Shown here one piece after another: positions 45,517 through 64,000 of a stretch of 64,000 nt of DNA. How positions within the stretch are numbered: position 1 is the first letter of the stretch; each line of letters begins with the position of its first letter. This DNA is from Bacteroidetes bacterium UBA7662 (GTDB lineage: Bacteria; Bacteroidota; Bacteroidia; UBA7662): NCBI GenBank assembly GCA_002483345.1, contig DLHS01000014.1, positions 10,180 through 74,179 on the forward strand. The letters run 5' to 3'. The position numbers and the translations under genes were made by a program. The notes beneath the pieces were generated by a model that saw nothing but the letters and a program-made list of their open reading frames with translations, had not been told where the DNA came from and searched no databases.

Positions 45517-45870
45517 ATGAGCAGCAGTATAGAAGTTCCAAAGATTTGTCAGGACTGCGGAAAGTCTTTCATCGCAAAGACTACCGTTACCAAATTTTGC
45601 AGCCACAAGTGCGCCTCCCGAAACTACAAGAAGCGTAAGCGAGAAGGAAAGATTGAGGAGGTTGCCCCTATTGTGGTTCAGAGAATTGAATACAATCAGG
45701 AACAGTTAAAGCACAAAGATTTTTTGAGTGTTGATGAAACCTGCAAGCTCTTAGGTGCAAGCCGCATGACAATCTATCGGCAGATAAAAGCCGGAAACAT
45801 CCGAGCGGCAAAGATTGGCAGTCGCACAATCATCAAGAGAACCGAAATCGATAAACTGTTTCAGATATGA
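45517..45870 (+). CDS. zinc-ribbon plus excisionase-type HTH DNA-binding protein
   Basis: N-terminal CQDCGKSF...CSHKC, then an HTH_17-like LSVDETCKLLGASRMTIYRQIKAGNIRAAKIG. There is a 4-nt overlap with the integrase start. Confidence 0.6.
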   Translation: MSSSIEVPKICQDCGKSFIAKTTVTKFCSHKCASRNYKKRKREGKIEEVAPIVVQRIEYNQEQLKHKDFLSVDETCKLLGASRMTIYRQIKAGNIRAAKIGSRTIIKRTEIDKLFQI

Positions 45871-48505: not shown

Positions 48506-48798
48506 ACGAGATAATGGATATGATCTTGACGCTAACTCAAGACATTAAAACAGTCAAAGCCTACCTCCTCAACTTCCATAAATCACGCTTGGAGCAATTC
48601 AGCGAGGAATGGATTGATGGACAGGTAGTGATGCAAACGCTTCACATTAGCAAAAGAACCCTCCAATCCCTTCGGGATGGTGGGGTTCTTCCCTACAGCC
48701 GAATCAATGGCAAATTCTACTACAAGGTTTCTGATATAGAAGCCTTTCTGGAATCCAATTACTCACCTTCAAAATCAAAGCACTATGGAGGTAAGTAG
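48502..48798 (+). CDS. second HTH_17-type DNA-binding protein
   Basis: VMQTLHISKRTLQSLRDGGVLPYSRINGKFYYKVSDIEAFL. There is a 4-nt overlap with the previous gene. Confidence 0.6.
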   Translation: MNEIMDMILTLTQDIKTVKAYLLNFHKSRLEQFSEEWIDGQVVMQTLHISKRTLQSLRDGGVLPYSRINGKFYYKVSDIEAFLESNYSPSKSKHYGGK

Positions 48799-49705
48799 AA
48801 AAGCCATTCTCGACAAAACGCACTACGGCTTAAATATCTACGCCTATGTGTTGCGACAGTACTATCCGGGTGAAACAGTCCTTTCCCTTTCGGGAAGGGA
48901 CTGCAAACCTGCGAAGAACCCATTCAATGCGGACAAGCCTACATTGTTGGTAAAGGTTGTTGACGGTTGTGCTACGCACACCGATTCAGAAGAAGCCATT
49001 GCACAAGGCAATGTCTTTGATTTTGCAGCTCTACATTTCAGCCTCGAAGGGCAAACCCTTCTCGACAAGCTGAATGAAGAACTGCATTTGCGTATCGGTA
49101 AGCAACAGGGTTTTTACGCTCAGGCAGAATCGCAACCTGCGGTTGCTCTTCCTGAAATAGTCAAACCGGCTGCGCCAGTTTTCAGCTATTTCAATAAGCC
49201 TGTCACCAACGTAACACCAAGTCGGCAAGCCTCCTTGGTTGAAGTTTACAATCTTATCAAAGGCAATGAATTTGCTTCGTGTACAAGTTCACTCCGCAAC
49301 ATTCCCGACCCAAAGGAAGCCAGAAAGTACAAGGCTCAAAATTTCGATTATGTGACCTTCTCAGGCACTTTCTCTAAGAGAAATGATGCAAACCTTCAAA
49401 GACATTCAGGTTTGCTCACAATCGATTTTGACCATATTCAGGACATTCCCACACTCAAGACGGCACTACTCAACGACCATTACTTTGAAACGGAGCTACT
49501 GTTTGTATCTCCTTCAGGTGATGGCCTCAAATGGGTAATTCCAATCGACTTGACGCAAGCAAAACACCAGGACTATTTCAAAGCAGTGGCAAACTACGTT
49601 TCCCACACCTACCATCTCGAAATAGACCAATCAGGGAAGGACATTTCAAGAGCCTGTTTCCTTCCACATGATTCAGAAATATTCATCAATCCTAAATACT
49701 TGTAG
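48785..49705 (+). CDS. BT4734/VirE-N-terminal-like (primase-like) protein
   Basis: NFDYVTFSGTFSKRNDANLQRHSGLLTIDFDH...LLFVSPSGDGLKWVIPID resembles the BT4734-like/VirE_N family found in Bacteroidota islands; recalled, not searched. Confidence 0.55.
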   Translation: MEVSRKAILDKTHYGLNIYAYVLRQYYPGETVLSLSGRDCKPAKNPFNADKPTLLVKVVDGCATHTDSEEAIAQGNVFDFAALHFSLEGQTLLDKLNEELHLRIGKQQGFYAQAESQPAVALPEIVKPAAPVFSYFNKPVTNVTPSRQASLVEVYNLIKGNEFASCTSSLRNIPDPKEARKYKAQNFDYVTFSGTFSKRNDANLQRHSGLLTIDFDHIQDIPTLKTALLNDHYFETELLFVSPSGDGLKWVIPIDLTQAKHQDYFKAVANYVSHTYHLEIDQSGKDISRACFLPHDSEIFINPKYL

Positions 49706-49708
49706 GAC

Positions 49709-51526
49709 ATGGAAAGAAAAACATTCAATCCACAGGATTGGCTTAATCAGCCAACCCCGCAACCGAAAGTTACAGAGCAACCAACTTTCAATACAGATTC
49801 CCAATCAGACGAAGTAGAGCGCATCATCCAAAGCATTGAAGCCAACCGAACAGATATTACCTCCAAGTATAGCGATTGGGTAAATATCGGATTTGCTTTC
49901 TCAGATGAGTTTGGAGAAAATGGACGTACCTTATTTCATAGGGTCAGCCAGTTTTATCCAGGCTATTCCGCCCCGGAGTGCGACAAGCAATTTGACAATT
50001 GCTTGAAATCAAAAGGTCATGGCGTTTCACTAAAGACCTTTTTCTACCTCGCCAAAGATGCAGGAATTGACATTGCCCCTCCACGGACAGAAAAACAGGA
50101 TCAGCGAACCTTCAAAAGTGAAAAGCTGAATGGTAGTCAATCTGAATACCACCAGCCCGAAAATCAGGAACCGGAAGAAATGCCAACCTTTCCAGATTCC
50201 TTGTTTCCTGAACTTCCTGAATTTCTGCAAAAGGTTGTGGCGGTTGCCACTTCCAATGAGGAAAGGGATATTCTACTCCTCGGTTCCCTCGGAGCTATCA
50301 GCGCATGTCTGCCCAAAGTATCGGGCATCTATGATGGTAAGCGAGTATTCCCCAATCTATTCCTATTCATTACAGCCCAGGCATCCGCAGGGAAAGGCCG
50401 ATTGGTGCATTGCCGCCAGTTGGTCAACCCTATTCACAAAGAGTTGAGGGAACAAGCCAAGCTACACAAACAACACTATGAATTGGAAATGGCAGAATAC
50501 AACTCCAAGAAGGGAAAGGAAGATGGTATCGAGAAACCAGCCAAACCACCTGAAAAGATGCTGTTCATTCCAGCCAACAACAGTTCAACGGGTGCTTATC
50601 AACTTTTGGGTGATAGTGATGGCAGAGGACTGATATTCGAGACCGAAGGTGATACCTTAGCCCATGCCTTCAAGAGCGATTACGGAAATTACAGTGATGG
50701 CTTTAGAAAAGCCTTTCACCATGAAACCATTTCCTACTATCGCAGAACCGACCGTGAGTTTGTGGACATAGAAAGCCCTTGCCTTTCTACTGTCCTTTCA
50801 GGAACGCCAAAACAAGTTTCGGCATTGATACCCAACGCTGAAAACGGCTTATTCAGCCGTTTCATCTTCTATTTCATGAACGTTCGCCCGGTATGGAAAA
50901 ATGTCTTTGCCAGTCAAACGGATAACGGACTGGACGATTACTTTGAAGCCCTGGGCAATGAGTTCTATGAACTCTACAAAGTCATCATGCAGGATGAACC
51001 TCGCCAGTTTCACCTTACAGCAGACCAGCAGGAACAATTCAACCAGTTTTTCGGACAGATACAGGAAAAGTACATGAACCTTCAAGGTTTGGATTACATG
51101 GCCACTATCAGAAGATTGGGTTTGATTGCTTACCGAATCTCTATGATATTTTCCGCTTTGCGGATCATGGAAACAGGCGACACTTCCAAAAAGCTGATTT
51201 GTGAGGAAAGGGATTTTCAAGCTTCGCTTTCAATGGTCAAAGTATTGGTCAAACATTCAAGCAAAGTGTTTGGAGAACTTCCACAAGAAGACCCCAAGCC
51301 ATCTCGAATGAATAAGAAGGAGAAGTTTCTGTATGCCTTGCCACATACATTCAATCGACAGAAGTACCTCGAAGTAGCAAAGGCCATGAGCATTCCGGCA
51401 AAGACAGCCGAAGGCTACATTGCCAACTTTGTGAAATCAGGGCTCATTCATCGTGAGGCACATGACCAGTACATCAACACCTCACTTGAGGAATCTCAGG
51501 ATTCTAAGGAAACTAAGGACGAATAA
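49709..51526 (+). CDS. PriCT-like N-terminus plus DUF3987-like protein (replication/mobilisation helicase-like)
   Basis: 605 aa. DWVNIGFAFSDEFGENGRTLFHRVSQ is PriCT-like. Its size and position after the VirE_N-like gene are typical for DUF3987 proteins. Confidence 0.55.
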   Translation: MERKTFNPQDWLNQPTPQPKVTEQPTFNTDSQSDEVERIIQSIEANRTDITSKYSDWVNIGFAFSDEFGENGRTLFHRVSQFYPGYSAPECDKQFDNCLKSKGHGVSLKTFFYLAKDAGIDIAPPRTEKQDQRTFKSEKLNGSQSEYHQPENQEPEEMPTFPDSLFPELPEFLQKVVAVATSNEERDILLLGSLGAISACLPKVSGIYDGKRVFPNLFLFITAQASAGKGRLVHCRQLVNPIHKELREQAKLHKQHYELEMAEYNSKKGKEDGIEKPAKPPEKMLFIPANNSSTGAYQLLGDSDGRGLIFETEGDTLAHAFKSDYGNYSDGFRKAFHHETISYYRRTDREFVDIESPCLSTVLSGTPKQVSALIPNAENGLFSRFIFYFMNVRPVWKNVFASQTDNGLDDYFEALGNEFYELYKVIMQDEPRQFHLTADQQEQFNQFFGQIQEKYMNLQGLDYMATIRRLGLIAYRISMIFSALRIMETGDTSKKLICEERDFQASLSMVKVLVKHSSKVFGELPQEDPKPSRMNKKEKFLYALPHTFNRQKYLEVAKAMSIPAKTAEGYIANFVKSGLIHREAHDQYINTSLEESQDSKETKDE

Positions 51527-51645: not shown

Positions 51646-51936
51646 ATGCACTTTGGTGAAAGGATAAAAGAGCTACGAGAAAGCCAGGGGCTTTTACAGC
51701 GTCAATTGGCCGCCAATCTTGAAATAGACACTCCAATGTTTAGCAAAATTGAGCGTGGTGAACGGAAGGCAAAGAGGGAGCAGGTAGAACAATTGGCTGA
51801 GCTACTTCATGCTGATAAGCCAGCTCTATTTTCAATCTGGTTGGCTGACCAAATATTGGATTTGATAAAAAACGAACCTCAGGCAAATGAGGCAATAGAA
51901 ATAGTAAAAAAAGAACTTAAAACGTATGAGCATTAA
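51646..51936 (+). CDS. XRE-family helix-turn-helix transcriptional regulator
   Basis: FGERIKELRESQGLLQRQLAANLEIDTPMFSKIERGERK. There is an 11-nt overlap with the hsdM start. Confidence 0.8.
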   Translation: MHFGERIKELRESQGLLQRQLAANLEIDTPMFSKIERGERKAKREQVEQLAELLHADKPALFSIWLADQILDLIKNEPQANEAIEIVKKELKTYEH

Positions 51937-53995
51937 TATCCTAAAGTACGAATCAGATGTTTGGCGCACAGCCGATTTATTGATTGGTGCAGGAATCAAG
52001 CAGAGTGATTTCCCAAAATACATGATGCCCTATTTCGCCCTTCTTATGGTGGAAAGTAGGTTAATCAGGGAATCCCAAAGGTTGGAAGAAGAAATCGGAA
52101 AAGGCAACATTGATGATTTTGTAGAAATGTTCCAGTTGGAAGGATTAGGATATAATGACTACCTCATCCGCAAAGGAAAATCCCTCAAAGACATTTGCAA
52201 GAATGACAAAGCCTTTGATATAGACTTTCATGCTTACCTGAAATCTTTTGACCCTGAAACCAAGTATTTATTGGGAGTTGACAAAGGCACTGAAGAAGAG
52301 AAGTTTCTGGACATTTCAGGTATCAGTGGTCAACTCAAAAAGAAGCGCATTCTGTTTGAAACGGTAAAGGCTTGGAGTGAAATTGACCTAACCCCTTTCA
52401 ATAATTCTGAAATCACCACACTTGAAGAACACATCAAACGAAAGTGGGCAGATATTTCAGCGGAAACCGCAGGGGAACAGTACACCCCGGACGACATCAT
52501 TTCACTTATTTCAGAACTCATTACCTCCAAGATTGAGGACAATGGTAAGTTCCTAACCCTGTATGACCCCACCTGCGGAGGTGGTAACTTACTCTTTGGT
52601 GTAGAAGATAAAATCAAGGAGAAATTCAAACGCCCTACAAAAACATTCGGTGAAGACTGGAGCGATAGCCTATACGCCTTGGCAAAAATTGAAAGCCGTT
52701 TCAGGGCTGATTCCGAAATCAAATACGGCAATACCCTCACCAATATTTCTTTCATAGAGAAACGCTTTGATATAGTGGTAGCAAACCCGCCTTACGGTGT
52801 GGACTGGAAAGGCTACCAAAAAGACATTCAAAACGATACTACTGAAAGGTTTGTCGCATTGCCTTCTATTTCAGACGGGCAGTTCCTGTTCACGCAGCAC
52901 ATCCTTTATCACTTAACCAATGACGGCCTCTCAGTAGTTGTTCATAATGGCTCCACACTTTTTAGTGGTGATGCCGGAAGTGGTGAAAGTACCATCCGCA
53001 AACACTTCTTTGATAATGATTGGGTAGAGGCCATAATCCAAATGCCTACAGATGAATTTTTCAACACAGGCATTTACACTTACCTATGGGTATTCAATAA
53101 GAATAAACCAGCCGACCGTAAAGACAAAGTAATCCTCATCAATGCCAGTGAGCTTTTCGAACCTTTGAAAAAAAGTAAGGGCAAGAAGCGTAAGCAGATG
53201 AACCCCGACAACCGAGCAGCCATAGTAAAAGCATTCACAGAGTTTCAAGACAACGAGTTTTGTAAAGTGTTCGACAAGTGGCATTTCTACTACAACCGCC
53301 AGAGCATCATGCTCACCAATGTGGATGTAAACGGTAAGTTCCTTGAAATGCCCATGAAAGAAAACCGAGCAGGTGAAACGGTTGAAGAAAAATCCATCAA
53401 GCTCGATCCGGTGAAGATTATCGTAAAGGATGATTCAGGCACAAGCACCATCGACAATTTTGAAATCACGGATTTTGATAAGACCAAATACACCTCATTA
53501 GAGGCAAGATTCAATGAGGAAGTAAAACTCAACATTGCAGCACTAGACTACAAAGAGCAGCAATTGAAAGTAGTGACCAAGAAAGCAACCTACTGGTATG
53601 ATGAAGTCAAAGAAACCATCATAGAAGAAGTAGGCGGCAAACAAACCGAATTGGGTTGTGGCAAAATCGTCATCAAAGCAGCCTACAAGAAAGCTACCAA
53701 ATCTAAAAAGGCTTACATAGCCATTACGGTAGAGCTGACCAAAGACCTGCAAAAGGATTATGAAATTATCCCCTACTCACCGGATGAAACTAAAAACCAT
53801 CAATGGATTTCAGATTTCATGGCCAAGTATGTAACCAGGCCATTTGAGTATCTAGAAAATGTGATTGGGGTGGAAGTAAACTTCAATAAGGTATTCTACA
53901 CCCCCTTAAAGCTAAGAGAAGTTACCACCATTAACACTGATTTGGAGGTTCTTGAAAATGAGTTATCAACCCTTGAAAACGAATTGAGTTTCTAA
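51926..53995 (+). CDS. hsdM: Type I restriction-modification system methyltransferase subunit M (N6-adenine), long form
   Basis: HsdM_N-like N-terminus (VWRTADLLIGAGIKQSDFPKYMMPYFAL). SAM motif YDPTCGGGNLL and catalytic NPPY at nt 52784-52795. The C-terminal extension is about 220 aa. Confidence 0.9.
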   Translation: MSINILKYESDVWRTADLLIGAGIKQSDFPKYMMPYFALLMVESRLIRESQRLEEEIGKGNIDDFVEMFQLEGLGYNDYLIRKGKSLKDICKNDKAFDIDFHAYLKSFDPETKYLLGVDKGTEEEKFLDISGISGQLKKKRILFETVKAWSEIDLTPFNNSEITTLEEHIKRKWADISAETAGEQYTPDDIISLISELITSKIEDNGKFLTLYDPTCGGGNLLFGVEDKIKEKFKRPTKTFGEDWSDSLYALAKIESRFRADSEIKYGNTLTNISFIEKRFDIVVANPPYGVDWKGYQKDIQNDTTERFVALPSISDGQFLFTQHILYHLTNDGLSVVVHNGSTLFSGDAGSGESTIRKHFFDNDWVEAIIQMPTDEFFNTGIYTYLWVFNKNKPADRKDKVILINASELFEPLKKSKGKKRKQMNPDNRAAIVKAFTEFQDNEFCKVFDKWHFYYNRQSIMLTNVDVNGKFLEMPMKENRAGETVEEKSIKLDPVKIIVKDDSGTSTIDNFEITDFDKTKYTSLEARFNEEVKLNIAALDYKEQQLKVVTKKATYWYDEVKETIIEEVGGKQTELGCGKIVIKAAYKKATKSKKAYIAITVELTKDLQKDYEIIPYSPDETKNHQWISDFMAKYVTRPFEYLENVIGVEVNFNKVFYTPLKLREVTTINTDLEVLENELSTLENELSF

Positions 53996-55357
53996 ATGCT
54001 AAACAAATACGGAACATACAAAGATGTAGGAGTGGATTTTTTGAATCCAATTCCTTCTCATTGGCAAATTAAAAGGGTGAAGGATATTTCTACGGTTATT
54101 TCAAAAGGAACTACACCAACAACTGAAGGTGCTGGATTTACAGACGTAGGAGTAAGATTTCTTAAGGCTGAAAACATTAATGAAAATGGAAACATTAATG
54201 AAACCCCTTTAATATTTATCAGTGAAGAAACAGACAGGCTTTTGTCCAGGTCCCGCTTGAAGGAAAATGATTTACTTATAGTTATAGCAGGTGCTACCAC
54301 AGGAAAAATTGCAATACTTCCTAAGGAAATTCTACCATCTAATACTAATCAGGCGGTTTGCTTCATAAGATTACATAAGTATGAACAGGGAAGCTACTTA
54401 AAATATAAGAAGTACGCCTTAAATAGTCCTTATTTTCAAAGTCTTGTTTGGTTGTATGCTGTTACCTCAGCTCAACCTAATCTTCCAATGGCTGTATTGA
54501 GTAGACTGAACTTGCATTATCCTCCACTTTCAGAACAAACCGCAATAGCTGAATACCTCGACACTAAAACTCAAGCCATTGATAAGAAAGTAAGCCTACT
54601 GGAAAAGAAAATAGGTTACTATCAGGAGTTGCGCAAAGGCCTTATCAATGAAACAGTTACTAAAGGACTTGATAAAAATGTAGAGCTAAAAACCAACGAG
54701 CTTGGTTTTGATACTCCCAAAAATTGGCTCAGATACCGTCTAAAAGATTTAGGCTCATTGTATAGCGGTCTATCCGGTAAGAGTGGAGATGATTTCAACC
54801 AAGACGATAACATGGATAACAAAGGCTTTATTCCATTCACCAACATTGCCAACAATACCTATTTGAAAAGGGATCATTTGGGTACGGTAGTAGTCAATGA
54901 AGGTGAGAAACAGAATCGGGTAAGAAAGGGAGATATTTTCTTCCTGATGAGTTCAGAGGGATATGAAGATATTGGAAAGTCAGCAGTTTTAGCCGAAGAG
55001 ATTGAGGAAACCTACCTCAACAGTTTTTGCAAAGGTTATCGAGTAAACCCTCGCAAAACCAACCCCTACTTTCTGAACTACCTGATGCTTTCAGACTATT
55101 ACAGGCAGTTGCTTATTGTGGAGGGCAAAGGTTTCACCCGCATTAACCTCAAAATGGAAAAGGTAAATGACTTTTTGGTGTACATCCCCGATACGCTTTC
55201 GGCTCAGGATGAAATCGTAAAATTCTTGGATGCCAAACTGGACACAATCGCCAAAATCATTTCAAACATTCAAACCCAGATAACCACCCTCAAAGAGCTT
55301 CGCAAAACGCTCATCAATGATGTGGTTACGGGCAAAATCAAGGTAAGCCATGAGTAA
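53996..55357 (+). CDS. hsdS: Type I restriction-modification specificity subunit S
   Basis: Two target-recognition halves are separated by conserved coiled-coil spacers (PPLSEQTAIAEYLD...; ...LKELRKTLINDVVTGKIKV). It starts 1 nt after the hsdM stop. Confidence 0.85.
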   Translation: MLNKYGTYKDVGVDFLNPIPSHWQIKRVKDISTVISKGTTPTTEGAGFTDVGVRFLKAENINENGNINETPLIFISEETDRLLSRSRLKENDLLIVIAGATTGKIAILPKEILPSNTNQAVCFIRLHKYEQGSYLKYKKYALNSPYFQSLVWLYAVTSAQPNLPMAVLSRLNLHYPPLSEQTAIAEYLDTKTQAIDKKVSLLEKKIGYYQELRKGLINETVTKGLDKNVELKTNELGFDTPKNWLRYRLKDLGSLYSGLSGKSGDDFNQDDNMDNKGFIPFTNIANNTYLKRDHLGTVVVNEGEKQNRVRKGDIFFLMSSEGYEDIGKSAVLAEEIEETYLNSFCKGYRVNPRKTNPYFLNYLMLSDYYRQLLIVEGKGFTRINLKMEKVNDFLVYIPDTLSAQDEIVKFLDAKLDTIAKIISNIQTQITTLKELRKTLINDVVTGKIKVSHE

Positions 55358-56018
55358 AACGTTCAACATATATTGTGACGAGAGTTGCCATATCGAGCAT
55401 GACCACAAACCGTACATGTTCTTAGGTTCAATAAGTGTGGCTTACAATCAGATTAAGCTGCATACCGAGAAAATCAAGGAGATAAAGGAAAAGCACCATT
55501 TCTATGGTGAGATCAAGTGGACTAACGTTTCCAAGTCCAAGTTTCATTTCTACATGGAACTGGTAGAGTATTTTTTTGCCACCGACCTAAAGTTTAGAAC
55601 CGTAGGTGTGGACAAAAGCAAAATCAACAATGAAGCCTTCGGGTGCTCCTATGATGATTTCTACTACAAGATGTATTACTACCTCTTGAACCACAACCTG
55701 AACAGCCTTTACAACTACAATGTGTATCTGGACATAAAAGATACCCTGAGTGCCTACAAAGTCAATAAGCTGAAAGACATTCTGAACACCAAATTTGGCG
55801 TATTCAGGAATGTGCAAAATATCCGTTCGCATGAGAGTTTGTTGATGCAACTGACAGATTTTATGATGGGAGCTATCAGTTACCAGCATAATAATGAAGC
55901 GAAGGAGAATCAGGCCAAAGCCCATATTATCAGGAAAATACAGCAACACTCAGGCGACAGCCTGATGAAGACCAATTATTCCGAGAAGTTGAACCTATTC
56001 TTTATCGAATTACAGTAA
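55350..56018 (+). CDS. DUF3800-family protein embedded in the R-M operon
   Basis: The N-terminal FNIYCDESCHIEHDH motif and about 220-aa size are typical of DUF3800. There is an 8-nt overlap with the hsdS stop. Confidence 0.65.
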   Translation: MSKTFNIYCDESCHIEHDHKPYMFLGSISVAYNQIKLHTEKIKEIKEKHHFYGEIKWTNVSKSKFHFYMELVEYFFATDLKFRTVGVDKSKINNEAFGCSYDDFYYKMYYYLLNHNLNSLYNYNVYLDIKDTLSAYKVNKLKDILNTKFGVFRNVQNIRSHESLLMQLTDFMMGAISYQHNNEAKENQAKAHIIRKIQQHSGDSLMKTNYSEKLNLFFIELQ

Positions 56019-56021
56019 GCC

Positions 56022-56528
56022 ATGCCATTCAATCTGTTAAAGACATACAATCAATTATTGGAACTGGCAGGGTTCAACGAATACCAAAGAAGGCAGTCGC
56101 TCATGGGCATTTTCGACCGTGACTTTACTAACAATCCCAACCTGCGATTTCGTAACATCCAAATTACGCCTACTCCTCAGGATGGGGCAATTGAAATGGC
56201 CACCTTGTTCACCCACCTCACTACCGTGATAGTGGACAAGGCAACACGGGCAAGGGAATTTGACATCCACAGAAGCCTGCGGCTTCATTGGGTACGTTTT
56301 CATATAGATTGCCGCAAACAGGAAGATATGCTCCATTTTTCGGTAAAGGAACCGGAAGGGATCAGGACTTACATCTATGACATACCGGAAAAATACGTGG
56401 TGGTTTTAGAGCCAAAACCAGCCCAGAACGTCTATTTCCTCCTTACTGCCTATCATTTGCAGGGGAAGGATTCACAAAGGGATAAAATTTTGAAAAAATA
56501 TAAGAGGAGGCTGAATGAGATACACTAA
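56022..56528 (+). CDS. hypothetical protein (168 aa) coupled to the DUF3800 gene
   Basis: The ORF starts 3 nt after the DUF3800 stop. No family recognised. Confidence 0.45.
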   Translation: MPFNLLKTYNQLLELAGFNEYQRRQSLMGIFDRDFTNNPNLRFRNIQITPTPQDGAIEMATLFTHLTTVIVDKATRAREFDIHRSLRLHWVRFHIDCRKQEDMLHFSVKEPEGIRTYIYDIPEKYVVVLEPKPAQNVYFLLTAYHLQGKDSQRDKILKKYKRRLNEIH

Positions 56529-56536
56529 AAAAGCAA

Positions 56537-56565
56537 AAAACGCAGAGCTTCTTGGCTTGCGTTTT
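56537..56565 (+). terminator. possible terminator hairpin between the hsdMS-DUF3800 unit and hsdR
   Basis: AAAACGCA...TGCGTTTT is an 8-bp stem, with an inner 3-bp extension. The T-run is part of the 3' arm. Confidence 0.4.
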
Positions 56566-56678
56566 CCGATTTCCTTCTTTCGAATGAAAGATGAACTCGC
56601 TGCAAATGTATGCAATGAAAACGGATTTTCCAAGCCTAAGGTTCATTTTCATGCACCCTCCCACACAACGCAAGTAGT

Positions 56679-59600
56679 ATGAAAGAGTTAGACTTACAAG
56701 ATAAATACCTCATTAACTTCCTTTGCGAGCGGCCTGATGGCCTTCGCTACAAGGAAGCTAAGGCAAACACCGTTTCGCCTCAATTCTTCATTGTCGAGGA
56801 CTTAAAACACTTCATTTCGGAAACCGAACTGAATAAAAGCAACTACAAAAAGTTGCTCAAGAAATTCCCAAGCGAAAAAGACCTATTGAATGCTTTTACC
56901 CTGTTTCTGGACGAGAAAATAAAATCGTCTATGAACATGGCTATTTTCATTAACACCAACAAATCGGTCACTTTTGAAGGCGTAAAGCTTCACCTGTTCT
57001 ATCCAAGCGGAAGTGAGTTTGAGGAAGATAAGCTGTTTGACCAAAATATCTTTTCAGTTGTTCAGGAGCTTCCGTATTCGTTCAAGTATGAAGGCAAGCA
57101 ATATTTCTCTTTCCGGCCAGACCTTTCATTTTTCCTCAATGGAATATTTTTAGGCTACAGCGAACTTAAAAGCAACTGGAACAATCAAACCTCAATCAAG
57201 AATGGCAGGAATAAGGTTGTTAAAGATTACCTCAATGCCTCCCAGGAGTATTTGACAATTGCGGACAAAAATGACTTTTCACAATCCATCCGAAAAGACT
57301 TTCTCAAAATCTTTGAAAAAGCCATTCACATCACCTCAACTGATATTGCCGAAACCTATGTCATTCGCAGTATCTCTAACCACTTTGATGAAATCAAAGC
57401 CACGGTACTGAATGGCAGTTACGATTTTGACCAGTACGAAAAGAAAGTCTTGAAGGACTTCAAGCCTTATCCTCTCCGCAATAAAGAAGCATCAAAGACT
57501 GAAAGGTTTGAAGAAGTATTCAAAGCCCTGTACGATAAGAAAATGATAGAGAAAGAAATCCTCTATTACAACTTCATTGAACGTGAGCTTATCAAAAAGG
57601 AAGGCAGCAAAACAAAAGAGTACAAGCATAATGATGGTAGGCTGATAAGTCCAAGACCTAAGCAGAAATTCGGTACAGATAAGATACTCTCAAAAATCAA
57701 TGAGTTTTTGGAGCATGAAGATGAACCGGAATACTTCCTAAAAAAACTTGAAGCGGAGCTTAGAGCCAAGGGTATAGGCGAAGGACAGATAAAAGAACTG
57801 GTTGCTAAACGCCAGAAATACCAAAACAACAAGACCGTTTATTCTCTCCTGATGCAGTATGCGGCAGGGTTCGGGAAAAGTAACATCATTGGCTGGACAG
57901 CCTTGCAACTGAAAGACCTTCGCAAAGAGGGTGAGTATGTCTATGACAAAGTAATGTTGGTAGTGGACAGACTACAGCTTCGGGACCAATTGGATTCCAA
58001 ACTGCACAACATGAATATTCAAAAGGGAATGTTCATAGAAGCCACTGACAAGAAAAGTTTCATCACTGCACTCAGTAGCGACAAACGAATAGTTGTTGTC
58101 AACCTGCAAAAATTCACTTCGGTAGATAATATTCTGGATGCCACGGTAGTCAAGAAGCTTTCCAAAATGAGGATAGCATTTCTAATTGACGAGATCCACA
58201 GAAGCAATAGTGGAGTTCAGCATGAAGAAATGATTAGTGTTTTTGATGAACTACAAAGCAGTTTTGATCAAAGCAAAGAGTACCAGGAGCAACAGAGTAA
58301 AAAGAATCTGATAGTCGGTTTTACAGCAACACCAAGCGACCATACTTTAGCCCGTTTTGGTGAGTTCAACAAGTATGCTGAATCTGAGAAAATCTGGATT
58401 CCTTTCGATAGCTATACCATGCGAGAAGCTATTGAAGACGGGTACATCCTGAATCCCATTAGAGGGATTGTTCCGGTTTCAGCCAAAATGTATTTCGAAA
58501 TACCCGACAATGACCTGGAAGGCTTTGAAGGAGATAAAGGCTACGGCTTTGAAGAAATACCAGATGATACAGATACTGGCATTGATGAGTATGGAAAGAA
58601 ATATGCCATTCGCAAAAGGAAAATCTACCTCAATACACAAAGAATTGATGCCATATCCAAATTCATAGTAGAACGTTTGGTTAGCTCAGTATATCACAAC
58701 ATCAGAGGTACAGCAAAGGCAATGTTGGCGGTTTCATCCATCCCGGCAGCTATCAAGTATAAAGGCTTTATTGACAAGTATTATGCAGAGATTGTAAAAG
58801 AGAAGAAGTATGAACGCTTCGAAGAAGCTCCAATCTACATTGTGTATTCAGACAGTCAGGATCACAGAAGCGCAAGCGGGTTGAATGGTGGTTTAAGTGA
58901 AGAAAAAGTCCTTCAAAACTTCGCTATCAAAAAGAATGGGTTGATTATCGTTGTGGATAAGCTCCAGACTGGATTTGATGAACCCAAGCTTCATACGTTG
59001 TTCTTGGACAAGGAAATCAGGGGTATCAATGCAATTCAAACCATATCAAGGGTAAACAGAACCACCAAGTACAAGAATGACTGTAAGATTATTGACTTCT
59101 CTTACAAGAACGTCAATGTAAAAAACATCAAGGTAGCTTTTGAGCATTTCAGTAACGTAGTGGTTTCAGATTTTGACCCATTGGGTGATGAAGGAAAGTT
59201 GGCAGACCTGTACAAGGAATTGAATACGCATTCCATTTTCAAGACGCACTTTCCAAAGTTCAAGGCTTACCATACATCAACCCCGGACATTTCAATAATT
59301 GTTGGAATTGAGGATGCTTTGGATGAATATATCCGCAATAAGAAAGAGGAAGCTAAGAAAATCAAGGAAAAGGTATTGGGCTATTTCAAAATCCTGAACC
59401 TTATTGAGTTTGTCATAGACTTAGACCCAAAGTATAGCCAAAAGCTCTTATTGGACTTTTGGCGCAAATACAACATGCTCTATAATCAAATCAACAAGCA
59501 GGATGAGGTTATTGATGATGTGGAAATTTACTTTGATAACCGTATCGGTATCGTGGCTCCAAAAGAACCGAAAGAGAATGGAAGCAAGCCTAAGAATCCA

Positions 59601-60449
59601 AACCCTACAAATCCGGGACAGCCCAATAAGTACAAATACAACATCCTTAAAGTCATAGAGAAACGCAATCAGGAAGAAGAAGCCATTGCAGAACTAATTG
59701 CCGACTTTGAGAGTAAAATAACTGCTCTATTTGAGTTCATCAAACAAGACGAAACTGGTTTGCGCCTTATTGCCAAAATCAATGATGAAGGCTTGGCATT
59801 CTCACAGGATGAAATTTATTCAGACTTCTCTAAGCTCTACAGGAAATACACAATCAGAAATAAAGAGTTGGGAGATTTCTTCCTGAGAGAAACAAAAGAC
59901 AACCTGAATCAATTGTGTGATGATTTTGAACGAACGCTAAGAGAAAGTCAAAATCAAAAACCGATTACAGAGCAAGCAGAAGGCCACCTTTTTATTGATA
60001 CCGAAAGCATAAAACAGGCTGAATCAATTTTTGATGCGTATGCTGCATTTGCAGAGGCATTAGGTTTCACCATTACGGAAGAAGGCACATTTGAAAAGGG
60101 TTCTTGGATAAAGAAAGGTATTAAGATGGTACAGGACTTCTTCAAAAAAGAAGAGGTGAAAGAAATCTACCAAAAAGGCAAACGCAGCTTAGAATTAGCC
60201 CACATCGAAAAAGTACAGGCAGAAATAGACGGGCTTAAAGTTGGTGCAGCGGCTCAACTCTTAGCCAGCGTAAAAGACACCACCAATATTGCTCTCAAAT
60301 TAGGTTCAATCGTTCTGATAAAAGCAATTACCAATGGTCAGGAGCAAACATTGATATTTGATCTTACAGACGAGCAAAGACAGAATCTTGAAAAGAACGG
60401 ATTCCTACTGAATCAACCGCAAGAATTATTAAAATATTTAAAGGGATAA
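56679..60449 (+). CDS. hsdR: Type I restriction endonuclease subunit R (oversized, 1256 aa)
   Basis: N-terminal PD-(D/E)xK motif (RPDLSFFLNGIFLGYSELK). SF2 motifs AAGFGKS, FLIDEIHRSN, GFTATP, QTGFDEPKL and QTISRVNR are present. Confidence 0.9.
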   Translation: MKELDLQDKYLINFLCERPDGLRYKEAKANTVSPQFFIVEDLKHFISETELNKSNYKKLLKKFPSEKDLLNAFTLFLDEKIKSSMNMAIFINTNKSVTFEGVKLHLFYPSGSEFEEDKLFDQNIFSVVQELPYSFKYEGKQYFSFRPDLSFFLNGIFLGYSELKSNWNNQTSIKNGRNKVVKDYLNASQEYLTIADKNDFSQSIRKDFLKIFEKAIHITSTDIAETYVIRSISNHFDEIKATVLNGSYDFDQYEKKVLKDFKPYPLRNKEASKTERFEEVFKALYDKKMIEKEILYYNFIERELIKKEGSKTKEYKHNDGRLISPRPKQKFGTDKILSKINEFLEHEDEPEYFLKKLEAELRAKGIGEGQIKELVAKRQKYQNNKTVYSLLMQYAAGFGKSNIIGWTALQLKDLRKEGEYVYDKVMLVVDRLQLRDQLDSKLHNMNIQKGMFIEATDKKSFITALSSDKRIVVVNLQKFTSVDNILDATVVKKLSKMRIAFLIDEIHRSNSGVQHEEMISVFDELQSSFDQSKEYQEQQSKKNLIVGFTATPSDHTLARFGEFNKYAESEKIWIPFDSYTMREAIEDGYILNPIRGIVPVSAKMYFEIPDNDLEGFEGDKGYGFEEIPDDTDTGIDEYGKKYAIRKRKIYLNTQRIDAISKFIVERLVSSVYHNIRGTAKAMLAVSSIPAAIKYKGFIDKYYAEIVKEKKYERFEEAPIYIVYSDSQDHRSASGLNGGLSEEKVLQNFAIKKNGLIIVVDKLQTGFDEPKLHTLFLDKEIRGINAIQTISRVNRTTKYKNDCKIIDFSYKNVNVKNIKVAFEHFSNVVVSDFDPLGDEGKLADLYKELNTHSIFKTHFPKFKAYHTSTPDISIIVGIEDALDEYIRNKKEEAKKIKEKVLGYFKILNLIEFVIDLDPKYSQKLLLDFWRKYNMLYNQINKQDEVIDDVEIYFDNRIGIVAPKEPKENGSKPKNPNPTNPGQPNKYKYNILKVIEKRNQEEEAIAELIADFESKITALFEFIKQDETGLRLIAKINDEGLAFSQDEIYSDFSKLYRKYTIRNKELGDFFLRETKDNLNQLCDDFERTLRESQNQKPITEQAEGHLFIDTESIKQAESIFDAYAAFAEALGFTITEEGTFEKGSWIKKGIKMVQDFFKKEEVKEIYQKGKRSLELAHIEKVQAEIDGLKVGAAAQLLASVKDTTNIALKLGSIVLIKAITNGQEQTLIFDLTDEQRQNLEKNGFLLNQPQELLKYLKG

Positions 60450-60450
60450 A

Positions 60451-60789
60451 ATGGCAACTACAATTCAAAATATCGAAATCCTAAGAGCTTACCTGACGGG
60501 TGTGCTGGACAGAGCAAATCACCATGCTCAGAATGTAAATGAAATTGCTCTTGCAATAGCAGGCGGTATCATTTGGCGGACAACCGATAATATACGGGTT
60601 ATGTCTCGTGAAGGAGAAATGAAAAATGTATTATGGCTTCAAGTCGGAAATAGAACCTTGTGTTTTGCTTACAACCACAATACAGGAAATATAGAAGTAC
60701 GGGAAGGGTCAGTTCAAGGATCAGTAATCACCAGCTTCAACAATTCCACTCCCCTCGCTGATGTAAAATCATTTTTTGAAAATCTGTAA
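60451..60789 (+). CDS. hypothetical protein (112 aa) between hsdR and the pAgo module
   Basis: The ATG lies 1 nt after the hsdR stop, and the ORF ends 5 nt before the next gene. No recognisable motif. Confidence 0.45.
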   Translation: MATTIQNIEILRAYLTGVLDRANHHAQNVNEIALAIAGGIIWRTTDNIRVMSREGEMKNVLWLQVGNRTLCFAYNHNTGNIEVREGSVQGSVITSFNNSTPLADVKSFFENL

Positions 60790-60794
60790 TTAAT

Positions 60795-61712
60795 ATGAAT
60801 ATCTACGCTTTAAATTCAGGAACACTAAGTCCAATCAAAGAATCTCCTTTCAAATTGGAAAGAGAGATCCAATCCATATTTGAACAAAACCTTAGTGCCG
60901 TGATGGACTTGGATTTGGTAAAATCCGAGTTCTCAATAAAGAATAAGCGTATTGATACTTTGGCATTTGACCCCCAATCCAAAGCCTTCATTATCATTGA
61001 ATACAAGAAGGATAAAAACATTAGTGTAGTTGACCAGGGCTTTACTTATCTGAGTTTGATGCTTGAAAACAAAGCTGATTTTATCATTGAATACAATGAA
61101 TCATTAAAAAAGCAACTCACAAGGGATGAAGTTGATTGGTCTCAAACAAGAGTAGTTTTTGTATCCACCAGCTTTACTGAAAATCAAAAGTTGGCAACCA
61201 ATTTCAAGGATATTGCTATTGAACTCTGGGAAGTTAAAAGATTTGAAAACCAAACAGTTTCTATAACGCCAATCAAGAAATCTAAATCAGCGGAGAGTAT
61301 AAAGCCCATTACCCAGCAAAACAAAGAACTGAAAGCAGTACAGGATGAGATAAAGGTTTATACAGAAGAAGACCACCTTGTCAAACCAACAGAAGAAATC
61401 AAAGAGCTTTATGAGTTGTTGAGGAATCGAATTTTAACTCTTGCAGATGACATTGAGGTTGTTCCTCAAAAAATGTACATAGCCTTTAGAAAAGATAAAA
61501 AGAATTTCACGTACCTACACCTCCAGAAGAAAAATATAAAGATTTGGATAAATGCCAAGTGGGGTGAAATAAATGAATCAAAAGGAATTGCCTCAAATGT
61601 GTCAAACAAGGGTCATTACGGATATGGTGACTATGAAATTGACATGAATGAAGATACCCAATTAGAATATATTTTAAGTCTGATGAAAGAAACCTTGAAG
61701 AAAGATGCCTAA
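60795..61712 (+). CDS. PD-(D/E)xK (NucS/DUF91-like) nuclease-fold protein with a DUF5655-like C-terminal half; putative pAgo partner
   Basis: E...RIDTLAFD...FIIIEYKK...QGFTYL gives the D-x14-E-x-K pattern (nt 60954-61007). There is an 8-nt overlap with the pAgo start. Confidence 0.6.
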   Translation: MNIYALNSGTLSPIKESPFKLEREIQSIFEQNLSAVMDLDLVKSEFSIKNKRIDTLAFDPQSKAFIIIEYKKDKNISVVDQGFTYLSLMLENKADFIIEYNESLKKQLTRDEVDWSQTRVVFVSTSFTENQKLATNFKDIAIELWEVKRFENQTVSITPIKKSKSAESIKPITQQNKELKAVQDEIKVYTEEDHLVKPTEEIKELYELLRNRILTLADDIEVVPQKMYIAFRKDKKNFTYLHLQKKNIKIWINAKWGEINESKGIASNVSNKGHYGYGDYEIDMNEDTQLEYILSLMKETLKKDA

Positions 61713-63804
61713 ACACTGTTTCAACATACTTACATTCAATCACCCGAGCGATTCGCTCACCTTCTATTTTTCTGACAGGGAGGAAGAAGGAACTACACGA
61801 ATTTATCATTCATTGGTTCCTGATGAGGTCATTGATAAGTATGCAGAACAGGAGCATTACTACACTTCATTTTGCCAAGAATTAGAAGGTTTCATTCCGA
61901 TTACTAAGCCAACAACGCCAACCTATGAGAAAATCACTACTGAAGAAGGAATTGAAAAATCCGTTCAGGTTTCCAATTCCGCCTTGTCTTCTTCCATTCT
62001 CAAAAGGTACTATAATTCACTAATTCATAACCATTTCAAGTCAAAGGGCTGTTTGGTCAAACCCAATTTTGTAAGCGATACAGAAGTTTGGTTACCAAGT
62101 GATACACAAGACAAAGAAGGGATATACAAAACCTTTGACCGTTTCTCTTTGAAAGTGCAGTTCAGGACAGTTTCAAACAGCCTTGAATTATTGGTCACAT
62201 TTGAAGGCAAGTCAAAGATTTTTAAAACTCCTGTATCAGAACTATTTGAAGAAGTACCAGTAAGGGCATTCAATTGGGTTGTCTATGAAAAAGGACTACA
62301 CCGCTTTGATGAATTGCCGGATGAAGGAAAAAGAAATTACGATAAGGTTTATCCTGTTTGGAATTTTGAAATCAGGGATGCTTTGCATCAGGAAACAGAA
62401 GCCCCGGACAAGACGAACAAATACAAGAAATTCAAAACGGCCATTGATAAATTTTACAGAGAGCAGCTTAATACAGCCGAGTTCAAGGCCATCATTCCGC
62501 TTTCATCTAAAGGGTTTATACCAGTTGATGAAGTCCGCATTGGTTCAATTGAAAAGTCCAGCAACAAACTTGTATTTGGAAATCAAAAGCTACACCATGT
62601 TCCGTACTATGGCATTACTGAAAATGGTCCTTTCGAGTTAAGCCCATCATCAAAGATTCATTTCTTTTTTATTCTCCATGAAGATGATAGAGAAGTAGCT
62701 ACCAAGATTCACAACTACTTTAACGGCAAACTCAACGGCTTTAGGGGGCTATCAAAGTTCATTCATACACCGTATCATCCAGATAAAGAACTCGCAATCT
62801 ATTTCAAGGACAGGGATAACCCTTGGCCGGAACTGTATGAGCAAATCAATGACAAGGACTTTGATACCGACATTCAGCACATAGCTATTTACATTACCCC
62901 AATCAGCAAGAATGTTCCAGTCAAATCTCAGAGGTTGGTTTACTACAAGCTGAAAGAGCTACTATTGAAAAAAGGAGTTTCCTCTCAGGTGATAGATCCT
63001 GACAAAGTCATTAGCAACGACAAGTATCACTTTAGCTTGCCAAACATCGCAATAGCCATTCTCGCAAAGCTCAATGGCACTCCGTGGAGGTTGGACACAA
63101 AGCTGAAAAATGAATTGATTGTTGGAGTTGGAGCATTCAAGCACACAGAAGTTGACATCCAATATATCGGCAGTGCTTTCAGTTTCTCCAATACAGGGAA
63201 ATTCAACCGCTTTGAATGTTTTCAGAAAGACCAAACAAAAGAGTTGGCAGGTTCAATCCTAAGAGCAGTTAAAGACTATGTGAATGTAAATACAGGAATC
63301 CGAAGGCTTGTAATTCACTTCTACAAAGACATGAGTAGAGAAGAAGTAGAACCGATTGAAAACGGCCTAAAAGAATTAGAATTGAATATTCCGGTCTTTA
63401 TCGTCACCATCAACAAAACGGAATCCTCCGATATTGTTGCCTTTGATTTGGACTGGAAAGATTTGATGCCTGTCAGTGGAACATTCATCAAATTGGGTTA
63501 CAACAGATTTTTACTATTCAACAATACCAGGTATTCAGCATCAGAGTTCAATTTCAATGACGGGTTTTCATTTCCGGTAAAGCTCAAGATAAATTGCTCC
63601 AACCCTGAATTGGTTGATGATTACAAAACAGTCAAAGAGCTTATCGATCAAGTGTATCAATTCAGTCGCATGTACTGGAAATCAGTAAGACAACAAAATT
63701 TGCCCGTAACAATCAAGTACCCTGAAATGGTGGCAGAAATGCTCCCCTACTTTGAAGGCAACGAGATTCCTGATTACGGTAAAGACAATCTTTGGTTTTT
63801 ATGA
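61705..63804 (+). CDS. prokaryotic Argonaute (MID-PIWI with a reduced N-terminal region), predicted catalytically inactive
   Basis: MID pocket YYKLK...SSQVI...AKLNG (Y-K-Q-K spacing). PIWI motifs NIAIAILAKLNGTPWRL, LIVGVGAF (Gly where the first catalytic Asp sits), RLVIHFYKD and LPVTIKYPEMVA. Confidence 0.85.
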   Translation: MPKHCFNILTFNHPSDSLTFYFSDREEEGTTRIYHSLVPDEVIDKYAEQEHYYTSFCQELEGFIPITKPTTPTYEKITTEEGIEKSVQVSNSALSSSILKRYYNSLIHNHFKSKGCLVKPNFVSDTEVWLPSDTQDKEGIYKTFDRFSLKVQFRTVSNSLELLVTFEGKSKIFKTPVSELFEEVPVRAFNWVVYEKGLHRFDELPDEGKRNYDKVYPVWNFEIRDALHQETEAPDKTNKYKKFKTAIDKFYREQLNTAEFKAIIPLSSKGFIPVDEVRIGSIEKSSNKLVFGNQKLHHVPYYGITENGPFELSPSSKIHFFFILHEDDREVATKIHNYFNGKLNGFRGLSKFIHTPYHPDKELAIYFKDRDNPWPELYEQINDKDFDTDIQHIAIYITPISKNVPVKSQRLVYYKLKELLLKKGVSSQVIDPDKVISNDKYHFSLPNIAIAILAKLNGTPWRLDTKLKNELIVGVGAFKHTEVDIQYIGSAFSFSNTGKFNRFECFQKDQTKELAGSILRAVKDYVNVNTGIRRLVIHFYKDMSREEVEPIENGLKELELNIPVFIVTINKTESSDIVAFDLDWKDLMPVSGTFIKLGYNRFLLFNNTRYSASEFNFNDGFSFPVKLKINCSNPELVDDYKTVKELIDQVYQFSRMYWKSVRQQNLPVTIKYPEMVAEMLPYFEGNEIPDYGKDNLWFL

Positions 63805-64000
63805 TCACTTCGACAACCATATATATCAAAAACATGGTCTGTCCTCGCTGTATAATGTCAGTGAAGTCCATTTTACAAGACCTTTCCATTCAATTCAATA
63901 ATATCGCTTTAGGTCAAGTGGAAATGGCGGAAGAAATGACAAAGTATCAACGTGCATTATTAGAGGAACGTCTTCTTGCAGTAGGTTTTGAATTGCTCGA
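63801..64000 (+). CDS. AraC-family-regulator-like N-terminal domain (partial; continues beyond the window)
   Basis: The ATG overlaps the pAgo stop (ATGA). MITSTTIYIKNMVCPRCIMSVKSILQDL resembles the small beta-alpha N-domain of Bacteroidota AraC-type regulators; recalled, not searched. Confidence 0.4.
   Translation, partial: MITSTTIYIKNMVCPRCIMSVKSILQDLSIQFNNIALGQVEMAEEMTKYQRALLEERLLAVGFELL

Follow-up and report, generated by a model that had tools for sequence, protein, structure and literature searches.

A predicted catalytically inactive long-B Argonaute of the AgaPP-associated subclade, encoded behind a variable restriction-modification slot on a Bacteroidota mobile element

Long-B prokaryotic Argonautes (pAgos) have been defined as full-length, bilobed proteins with a usually shortened PAZ domain (PAZ*), a PIWI domain without the DEDX tetrad (PIWI*) and a canonical YK-type motif for the guide 5'-phosphate in the MID domain (Ryazansky, 2018), and the combination of a kept 5'-phosphate pocket with a lost tetrad has already been published for all long-B pAgos (PMC6299218). 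Most characterised inactive pAgos work through effectors, and the known effector genes share an operon with their pAgo. RsAgo, from Rhodobacter sphaeroides, provides the precedent for plasmid interference through the MID pocket without slicing. In the solved structures of RsAgo and of EcAgo from E. coli, the carboxylate of the C-terminal leucine (L777 and L731, respectively) holds the Mg2+ of the 5'-phosphate pocket. In the AgaPP-associated subclade, an arrangement has been published where an integrase, AgaPP and AgaPH precede a cargo slot (PMC11724360; PMC10620215), and abortive infection was deemed unlikely for this subclade by its describers (PMC11724360).

Here we describe a pAgo gene from a 64,000-nucleotide stretch of Bacteroidetes bacterium UBA7662 (contig DLHS01000014.1), termed the window, whose features are collected in Table 1. 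Judged from its sequence and gene context, the product is probably a catalytically inactive long-B pAgo of the AgaPP-associated (og_54 / VirE_N) subclade. This is an ordinary identity, since the group, which travels on integrating mobile elements in Bacteroidota, is already published. The reading frame matches Piwi in Pfam (E 2e-14), the PADLOC pAgo model PDLC02385 covers it over its full length (E 1.5e-290), and no PAZ domain was found by Pfam. An AF2 model (pLDDT 82, pTM 0.78; low confidence in the last 44 C-terminal residues, E674 included) found RsAgo as its top match in fold comparison (TM 0.66, global alignment) and also aligned with other full-length Argonautes, so that the model points to the full-length bilobed architecture of long-B pAgos. 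The pAgo profile matched AfAgo (best in the PDB, 5e-25), RsAgo (1e-17) and EcAgo (6e-17), whereas no long-A pAgo matched at E<=1 and TtAgo was reached by profile-profile comparison only; the closest solved structures among these profile matches are all long-B.

Table 1. Coordinates of the features discussed, in window positions unless given as residues (aa) of the pAgo
Feature	Position	Strand	Remarks
Tyrosine integrase of the element	45867..46961	+	Pfam
PrimPol and helicase backbone genes	48785..51526	+	Pfam, translation
AgaPP-like PrimPol	48785-49705	+	BT4734-like_N; DFD and GLK motifs
AgaPH-like helicase	49709-51526	+	PriCT_2 and DUF3987
Variable slot	51646..60789	+	XRE regulator, Type I R-M, 112-aa VCH_CASS14-family gene; Pfam
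Type I R-M system in the slot	within 51646..60789	+	hsdM, hsdS, DUF3800, a 168-aa unknown, hsdR (1256 aa)
305-aa PD-(D/E)XK-like and DUF5655 protein	60795..61712	+	PADLOC PDC-S18; 8-nt overlap with pAgo start
pAgo gene	61705..63804	+	699 aa, from the ORF list; Pfam Piwi and PADLOC pAgo matches
pAgo N/L1/PAZ-like/L2	about aa 1-295		Putative boundaries, by analogy to EcAgo
pAgo MID	about aa 296-468		Putative boundaries, by analogy to EcAgo
pAgo PIWI	about aa 469-699		Putative boundaries, by analogy to EcAgo
MID 5'-phosphate pocket	62941..63069	+	Y413, K417, Q428, K455; TtAgo and RsAgo alignments
Pocket codons	Y413 62941-62943; K417 62953-62955; Q428 62986-62988; K455 63067-63069	+
G476 (gga)	63130..63132	+	First catalytic Asp position; TtAgo D478, RsAgo G529, EcAgo G492
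K512-E513	63238..63243	+	Glutamate-finger position; TtAgo E512 aligns with K512 (hhalign)
Y540-K541-D542	63322..63330	+	Y540 opposite TtAgo D546, third tetrad residue (hhalign)
D542 codon (gac)	63328-63330	+	Asp named in the preliminary description
E674 (gaa)	63724..63726	+	Fourth tetrad position; TtAgo D660 (hhalign), RsAgo E746 (phmmer)
C-terminal W697-F698-L699	63793..63801	+	Terminal carboxylate expected to hold the pocket Mg2+
AraC-family regulator, start	63801..64000	+	Overlaps the pAgo stop codon; first metal-resistance cargo gene

A preliminary description of this DNA had proposed a Y-K-Q-K pocket for the guide 5'-phosphate, and all the codons that it named are correct when checked against the reading frame. 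The pocket aligns with TtAgo by hhalign (Y413 with R418, K417 with K422, Q428 with Q433, K455 with K457; TtAgo sequence from pTT27, in a shallow profile of 21 close relatives only) and with RsAgo by phmmer (Y463, K467, Q478 and K506 in the same order, numbering calibrated on the RsAgo paper). Across 130 representatives at 26-53% identity to the query, the four residues are 96-100% conserved (Y413 in 126, K417 in 125, Q428 in all 130 and K455 in 129) and make up the canonical YK-type MID motif of long-B pAgos, while the C-terminal motif is kept at W697 in 117, F698 in 120 and L699 in 118. Conservation at this level is a mark of strong purifying selection on the pocket residues and on the C-terminal carboxylate motif.

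At the catalytic tetrad the protein reads G476, K512, Y540 (or D542) and E674 against D478, E512, D546 and D660 of TtAgo. Position 476 is always a small residue in the relatives (G in 123/130, S in 5/130, A in 2/130) and Asp in 0/130, in agreement with the earlier proposal that the first catalytic Asp is lost, and both K512 and E513 are variable. The fourth position was rightly given as Glu, a residue found there in 81 of the 130 relatives. As for the FYKD segment, which had been equated with the RDG-type motif, its Asp codon lies where it was placed, but both profile alignments set Y540, not D542, opposite TtAgo D546; the predicted strand at 534-539 agrees with this alignment-based register. 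Y540 is kept in 116/130 relatives and K541 in 122/130, and position 542 is Asp in just 18/130; the equivalence is therefore doubtful and without functional weight. No conserved acidic residue occurs at the tetrad positions among the 130 relatives, those acidic residues that are conserved in MID-PIWI (E376, E418, E470, E547, D576 and D581) all lying elsewhere, and the intact DEDX tetrad of slicing, long-A-type Argonautes is absent. Alignment with TtAgo and RsAgo upholds the pocket and the tetrad loss and leaves the third-position Asp doubtful, and guide loading without slicing, as had been argued, is well supported by the conserved pocket and C-terminal motif and by the lack of conserved tetrad acidics. 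Several other searches gave little: PIWI residues 500-660 alone, or a profile of residues 486-645, returned only AfPiwi among Argonautes, or an unrelated protein; tblastn of plasmid records for RsAgo did not find it and returned distant Piwi genes at 21-27% identity; and a literature search yielded nothing on 'RsAgo G529'.

The gene would be a conserved part of a mobile element that integrates and replicates by itself. From the integrase onward, GC content drops to about 0.40, from about 0.49 before it. The integrase, AgaPP and the PriCT-DUF3987 helicase all lie upstream of the pAgo gene on the plus strand of this one element, and the same three genes, together with XRE, precede pAgo in loci L014, L017-L021, L029, L032, L034 and L036. 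Downstream of pAgo, the 39 loci compared carry genes for metal efflux and a regulator of Fur-like or AraC type; L042:14-556 matches HTH_18/AraC and is followed by HMA, RND, OEP, P-type ATPase and CDF genes. Algoriphagus, Gynurincola, Sphingobacterium, Marivirga and a Cryomorphaceae MAG have pAgo copies at 97-98% identity, and near-identity between such distant Bacteroidota shows recent transfer.

Four RNA libraries also contain contigs that match the pAgo gene at 90-97% identity, a weak indication given possible DNA carry-over; the contigs stem from relatives and cover the pAgo gene only, apart from one with upstream sequence like that of locus L004. Positions 60795-61704 have no cover in these libraries, which is uninformative. 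A promoter and terminator scan gave counts equal to those of shuffled sequence, with a consensus that does not fit Bacteroidota promoters.

The slot upstream of pAgo is exchanged from locus to locus, holding different R-M types or an XRE gene alone. Over the 39 loci, the upstream neighbour of pAgo is HsdR, RhuM, AlwI, ResIII, BsuBI/PstI, YgjP, a putAbiC protein, the 305-aa nuclease or XRE, the last of these standing alone in 10. No gene is conserved within 6 kb on either side of pAgo in these loci, and sequence similarity breaks off precisely at the start codon (ATG) and the stop codon of pAgo. The pAgo is nevertheless always tightly packed behind its upstream gene, very often a nuclease-containing R-M system, and this packing could reflect a functional link. 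The preliminary description had gone on to suggest a sensor role; effector activation of the kind known from BPAN, BPAS and BPAM draws no support from this gene context, where no neighbour is conserved.

The reading that we prefer, with a probability of roughly 0.6, is that of an inactive, effector-less long-B pAgo that blocks invaders by guide-directed binding on behalf of its mobile element. An obvious rival is a BPAN-like pair, where the pAgo would sense a target and activate the upstream 305-aa nuclease for collateral DNA degradation. Long-B pAgo and nuclease systems are known, the two genes overlap on the same strand, the 305-aa protein has both a D..EYK nuclease-type motif and a match to a candidate defence family of PADLOC (a literature search found nothing on 'PDC-S18'), and the two genes also adjoin in both L015 and the distant L030 (in the latter, pAgo 53%, nuclease 58% identical). 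That said, only 2 of the 39 related loci have this adjacency; in 401 sampled Bacteroidota genomes the nuclease family was found in 33 and the pAgo family in 12, and the two together only in the window's genome (1/33 nuclease carriers); elsewhere the PD-(D/E)XK and DUF5655 nuclease is embedded in Type I R-M operons that have no pAgo; and the architecture is reversed, with an N-terminal nuclease domain in the upstream gene here and a C-terminal one in the downstream gene in the case of bAgaN. We judge the 305-aa nuclease to be independent cargo of the R-M slot and not a dedicated partner, and hold such a pair to be quite improbable. A looser version, where pAgo would act in the style of DdmDE by recruiting or cooperating with whichever nuclease the slot provides (the HsdR translocase-nuclease, for example), or would take guides from R-M degradation products, could account for the R-M system usually found directly upstream and for the many loci, those of relatives at 38-40% identity among them, in which the pAgo start overlaps or abuts the stop codon of HsdR or of an accessory R-M gene. 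A specific interface is hard to reconcile with folds as unrelated as those of Type I, II, IIG and III enzymes, RhuM and YgjP, or with the loci where XRE stands alone, and defence genes cluster on mobile elements without functional coupling, which leaves this version very improbable.

Since most characterised inactive pAgos use an effector, an unlinked or variable one is conceivable, and the pAgo may act as a sensor for an effector encoded either by the host or, in trans, by another part of the element. The absence of conserved genes in the flanking 6 kb and the operonic location of known effector genes speak against this, and a host-encoded partner is unlikely because the element moves among distant hosts; on balance we find it distinctly unlikely. 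Another thought is that pAgo serves the life cycle of the element together with AgaPP-AgaPH, for instance in copy control or in exclusion of related elements by guide-directed binding to replication intermediates, given that integrase, AgaPP, AgaPH and pAgo are conserved components reported to co-evolve (PMC11724360) and keep an identical gene order here and in related loci. Co-inheritance on one element would explain the co-evolution without any interaction, however, and variable cargo separates pAgo from the replication module, so we consider this rather unlikely. Almost no weight is given to slicing by non-canonical residues, for example D542 and E674 with another acidic residue: both are acidic in the window copy, but they vary among relatives as given above, the first metal ligand is Gly, the conserved acidic residues are off the tetrad positions, and RsAgo and EcAgo, which share this Gly, do not cut.

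In the preferred mechanism of guide-directed blocking, a 5'-phosphorylated guide would be anchored in the MID pocket by Y413, K417, Q428 and K455, with the pocket Mg2+ probably held by the carboxylate of the C-terminal leucine, as in the solved structures, and would pair with a complementary target inside a normal bilobed Argonaute. The parallel with RsAgo and EcAgo makes an RNA guide and a DNA target probable. The pAgo itself is predicted not to slice, because the first metal-binding position of its RNase H site is Gly and the other positions lack conserved acidic residues. To judge from the gene context, it would have no dedicated effector; guide-directed binding would block replication or transcription of incoming plasmids, phages or rival elements, any degradation of the target would be left to non-dedicated nucleases, and the beneficiary of the interference would be the carrying element. 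We regard it as unlikely that this widespread family is an effector-less, non-suicidal module against rivals whose place as the last gene behind the R-M slot reflects cooperation, where R-M or HsdR activity may feed or execute pAgo targeting; if true, inactive long pAgos would have a mode of action not described before. The residue pattern adds nothing new, as a 5'-phosphate pocket with a lost tetrad is the very definition of long-B pAgos. What the window offers is a clean example of the AgaPP subclade, with a backbone pAgo behind a swappable R-M slot and near-identical copies in distant Bacteroidota, and its mechanism, if solved, would tell whether an inactive Argonaute protects by binding alone or through borrowed, unrelated nucleases.

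Among known systems, the BPAS arrangement of a long-B pAgo with SIR2_2 is present in L050-L052, relatives at 22-35% identity. SIR2_2 adjoins only relatives at <=35% identity to the window pAgo, the distant relatives being BPAS-type; no SIR2 gene lies next to the window pAgo or any relative of at least 37% identity, and neither the window nor the 39 close loci have the downstream SIR2_2 or transmembrane effector of BPAS and BPAM. EcAgo, the pAgo of BPAN in E. coli (PDB 23wq; PMC13535254), is also long-B: its pocket reads X-K-Q-K, its first tetrad position is G492, its PAZ domain is small and its C-terminal Leu coordinates Mg2+. It activates a bAgaN nuclease, encoded downstream, within an 8:8 complex; no homologue of bAgaN is present in the window, whose pAgo locus lacks the operon-conserved downstream og_15 RecB-like nuclease with C-terminal PD-(D/E)XK of BPAN. 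AfAgo (AfPiwi, AF1318 of Archaeoglobus fulgidus), the best sequence match in the PDB, shares the pocket motifs YYKLK...SQ...KLGGKPW, although it is a truncated MID-PIWI protein whereas the window pAgo is full length. RsAgo (PDB 5AWH/6D8P) has the same Y-K-Q-K pocket, the same Gly and Glu at the first and fourth tetrad positions and the same C-terminal Leu, at about 17% identity and with the window protein 78 aa shorter; it has a downstream nuclease gene where the window has the AraC regulator, and its use of an RNA guide and a DNA target has been shown, whereas that of the window pAgo is a probable parallel. In gene order, compared on the basis of the published description, the locus matches the AgaPP-associated long-B pAgos, such as the Seonamhaeicola sp. 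S2-3 cluster (Song, 2023, PMC10620215; NAR 2025, PMC11724360): integrase, BT4734-like PrimPol, PriCT-DUF3987 helicase, HTH and defence genes, and pAgo follow each other in both. There, too, the pAgo is of the inactive long-B kind, the mobile element is from Bacteroidota and the cargo in between varies. Counted from agaPP, the window pAgo is the 10th gene, where a distance of 2-8 genes has been reported, a greater distance that is due to the large Type I R-M cassette in the slot.

The ORF in question encodes a 699-aa prokaryotic Argonaute (pAgo) with a Pfam Piwi match (E 2e-14), and the PADLOC pAgo model covers its full length (E 1.5e-290). Its AlphaFold2 model, for which 33 relatives served as alignment input (pLDDT 82, pTM 0.78), has RsAgo as top structural match (TM 0.66) and depicts a complete bilobed Argonaute. 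When 1.8 billion cluster representatives were searched with a profile, 351 clusters scored E<1e-30, and conservation was counted in 130 full-length representatives, 26-53% identical to our pAgo.

All codons named in the preliminary description are correct, and alignments against TtAgo and RsAgo uphold both the 5′-phosphate MID pocket and the loss of the first catalytic Asp that it proposed. TtAgo, whose sequence was taken from plasmid pTT27, was compared with the 33-sequence alignment of relatives, and its family profile with the 130-sequence family alignment (probability 94%); the two runs agree on the residue pairs. In a phmmer alignment with RsAgo, numbered after Miyoshi (2016), the pocket residues Y413, K417, Q428 and K455 correspond to Y463, K467, Q478 and K506, and G476 to G529. 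EcAgo likewise has Y426, K430, Q441 and K469 in its pocket and G492 at the first tetrad position (PMC13535254). The pocket Mg2+ is held by the C-terminal Leu carboxylate in RsAgo (Miyoshi 2016) and EcAgo (PMC13535254); our pAgo ends in W-F-L. At the final tetrad position stands Glu, as described. Within MID-PIWI, acidic residues are conserved only at E376, E418, E470, E547, D576 and D581, and none of these is a tetrad position. Because the pocket is near-invariant and the tetrad positions hold no conserved acid, selection acts on the pocket and not on the active site; judged from the sequences, the pocket is conserved and the RNase H site dead, in agreement with the earlier proposal of guide binding without slicing.

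Features in and around the pAgo locus (window coordinates unless a locus is named; TtAgo counterparts from both profile runs; counts among 130 representatives)
Feature	Position	Strand	TtAgo	Details
HsdR	56679-60449			1256 aa
VCH_CASS14-family gene	60451-60789			112 aa, E 2e-32
PD-(D/E)XK+DUF5655 protein	60795-61712	+		305 aa; PADLOC PDC-S18, E 1e-133
Sigma-70-like match	61639-61668	+		TTGACA, 18 nt, TAGAAT; 11/12; 37 nt before pAgo ATG
pAgo gene	61705-63804	+		699-aa ORF, site of the residues below
Y413	62941-62943		R418	kept in 126
K417			K422	kept in 125
Q428			Q433	kept in 130
K455			K457	kept in 129
G476	63130-63132		D478	G 123, S 5, A 2, D 0
K512/E513				glutamate-finger position, variable
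D542	63328-63330			Asp in 18; T, E, K as common
E674	63724-63726		D660	Glu in 81
Flanking genes, L051	9011-10339 and 5627-6874	-
YhcG/DUF1016 nuclease, L044	4977-6101
YhcG/DUF1016 nuclease, L045	4935-6059
Putative AbiC-domain protein gene, L037, L039	4738-5958			406 aa
Metal-resistance cluster, L042	G000:C2:74000-93999			directly downstream of window

The equation of FYKD with the RDG motif is doubtful, although its Asp codon was placed correctly: both profile alignments set Y540 opposite TtAgo D546 and D542 opposite R548, a register with which a predicted strand at 534-539 agrees. An alternative (K541=R545, D542=D546) is reached by shifting that one 2-residue gap to a different place, and would give a third-to-fourth spacing equal to EcAgo Q568-D700. 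On the alignments, Y540 rather than D542 would occupy the third tetrad position; in either register the non-slicing conclusion is unchanged, since neither position has a conserved acidic residue.

Among solved structures the family profile matched AfAgo (5e-25), RsAgo (1e-17) and EcAgo (6e-17), all long-B or long-B-derived, and no long-A pAgo at E<=1. According to Ryazansky et al. (PMC6299218), no long-B pAgo has the catalytic tetrad, the YK motif is nearly always retained and the PAZ domain is as a rule shortened; a lost tetrad with a kept pocket is therefore what defines an already known clade. In relatives at 22-35% identity a SIR2_2 gene follows pAgo, which is the BPAS arrangement. One such relative (L051, 35% identity) lies in a three-gene arrangement, with a Schlafen/AlbA_2+HATPase_c_4+HTH protein upstream and a SIR2_2 protein downstream.

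The island carrying pAgo has a lower GC (~0.40 against ~0.49). It runs from an excisionase-like HTH gene and tyrosine integrase through a DUF6617 gene, a BT4734-like PrimPol (DFD and GLK motifs), a PriCT_2+DUF3987 helicase, an XRE regulator, a Type I R-M system with embedded accessory genes, the VCH_CASS14-family and PD-(D/E)XK+DUF5655 genes and pAgo to an AraC regulator and heavy-metal resistance cluster. Across 39 related loci the frame PrimPol-helicase-XRE-slot-pAgo recurs; the slot holds Type I, II, IIG or III R-M, RhuM, YgjP or putAbiC proteins, and in 10 of the 39 XRE immediately precedes pAgo. In ~35 loci DNA similarity is bounded exactly by the pAgo ATG and stop (61705 and 63804 in the window, 6001 and 8097 in L001-L036), with several unrelated cassettes upstream and several others downstream, in differing combinations. 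The pAgo gene therefore resembles a fixed anchor with exchangeable cargo on either side. Copies 96-98% identical in protein (L001-L008) occur in genomes labelled Algoriphagus, Gynurincola, Sphingobacterium, Marivirga, Cryomorphaceae (a MAG) and Cytophagales, with copies at 97-98% in each of the first five. Such identity shows recent horizontal transfer and points to a very recent one between Bacteroidota classes. pAgo-like contigs, 90-97% identical, in four RNA libraries of four studies weakly hint at transcription.

Several cargo genes deserve mention. In HsdR the Pfam domains stop near aa 810, which leaves ~440 C-terminal residues unmatched to any family; L011 and L013 encode homologues of ~1110 aa at 92-93% identity. 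The gene between hsdR and the nuclease matches an integron-cassette protein family, has no PADLOC match and was found beside pAgo in no other locus. The sigma-70-like match falls inside the nuclease gene, at its 3′ end; the region contains just as many of these matches as shuffled sequence does, and the consensus is not that of Bacteroidota. The downstream cluster opens with an AraC regulator and comprises an HMA+MauE protein, RND pump, outer-membrane factor, P-type ATPase, CusB-like HlyD protein, DUF3347 proteins and CDF transporter; in many related loci its place is taken by a Fur-like regulator, DUF6660 and an RND-OEP fusion. In L044 and L045 (pAgo 37-40% identical) a YhcG/DUF1016 PD-(D/E)XK nuclease gene lies downstream of one for an HsdR-like protein, and its end shares 1 nt with the start codon of pAgo. 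A putative AbiC-domain protein immediately precedes pAgo in L037 and L039 (Pedobacter, 43% identity), and downstream of the L004 pAgo lies a GmrSD enzyme to which DUF5655 is fused.

By analogy with RsAgo and EcAgo, our pAgo would use a 5′-phosphorylated RNA guide against a DNA target. The sensor role suggested earlier finds no support, as gene context offers no dedicated effector; interference would then proceed through guide-directed binding and benefit the element. The adjacent nuclease, whose gene shares its last 8 nt with the start of pAgo, is an improbable effector: besides the window it directly precedes pAgo only in L015 and L030, and among 401 Bacteroidota genomes (one sample), with the pAgo family in 12 and the nuclease family in 33, both occur only in the window's own. 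Elsewhere it follows hsdR or is flanked by hsdM and hsdS, away from any pAgo, inside Type I R-M operons in at least 3 of 11 loci examined (L054, L058, L059). bAgaN shows the opposite layout, with a C-terminal nuclease domain and a gene downstream of its pAgo. These findings speak against a dedicated partnership, and in our view the nuclease is cargo of the R-M slot.

That slot nucleases or HsdR serve as effectors, or R-M degradation products as guide source, is a shade less probable still, given the varied slot content. Cooperation with the PrimPol-helicase module, which recurs in the frame, is the least unlikely alternative, followed closely by an effector encoded in trans, while residual slicing is hardly credible with G476 and its counterparts never Asp. 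Guide-directed binding by pAgo itself remains our preferred reading.

We regard this pAgo as a further member of a published group. Song (2023) defined the og_54 (VirE_N) subclade of long-B pAgos and left its function open (PMC10620215). Integrase, AgaPP (the PrimPol), AgaPH (the helicase) and long-B pAgo have been described as conserved mobile-element components, other genes being gained or lost, and abortive infection was judged unlikely for the AgaPP-associated subclade (NAR 2025, PMC11724360). The window locus matches this description of an og_54 (VirE_N)/AgaPP long-B pAgo element.
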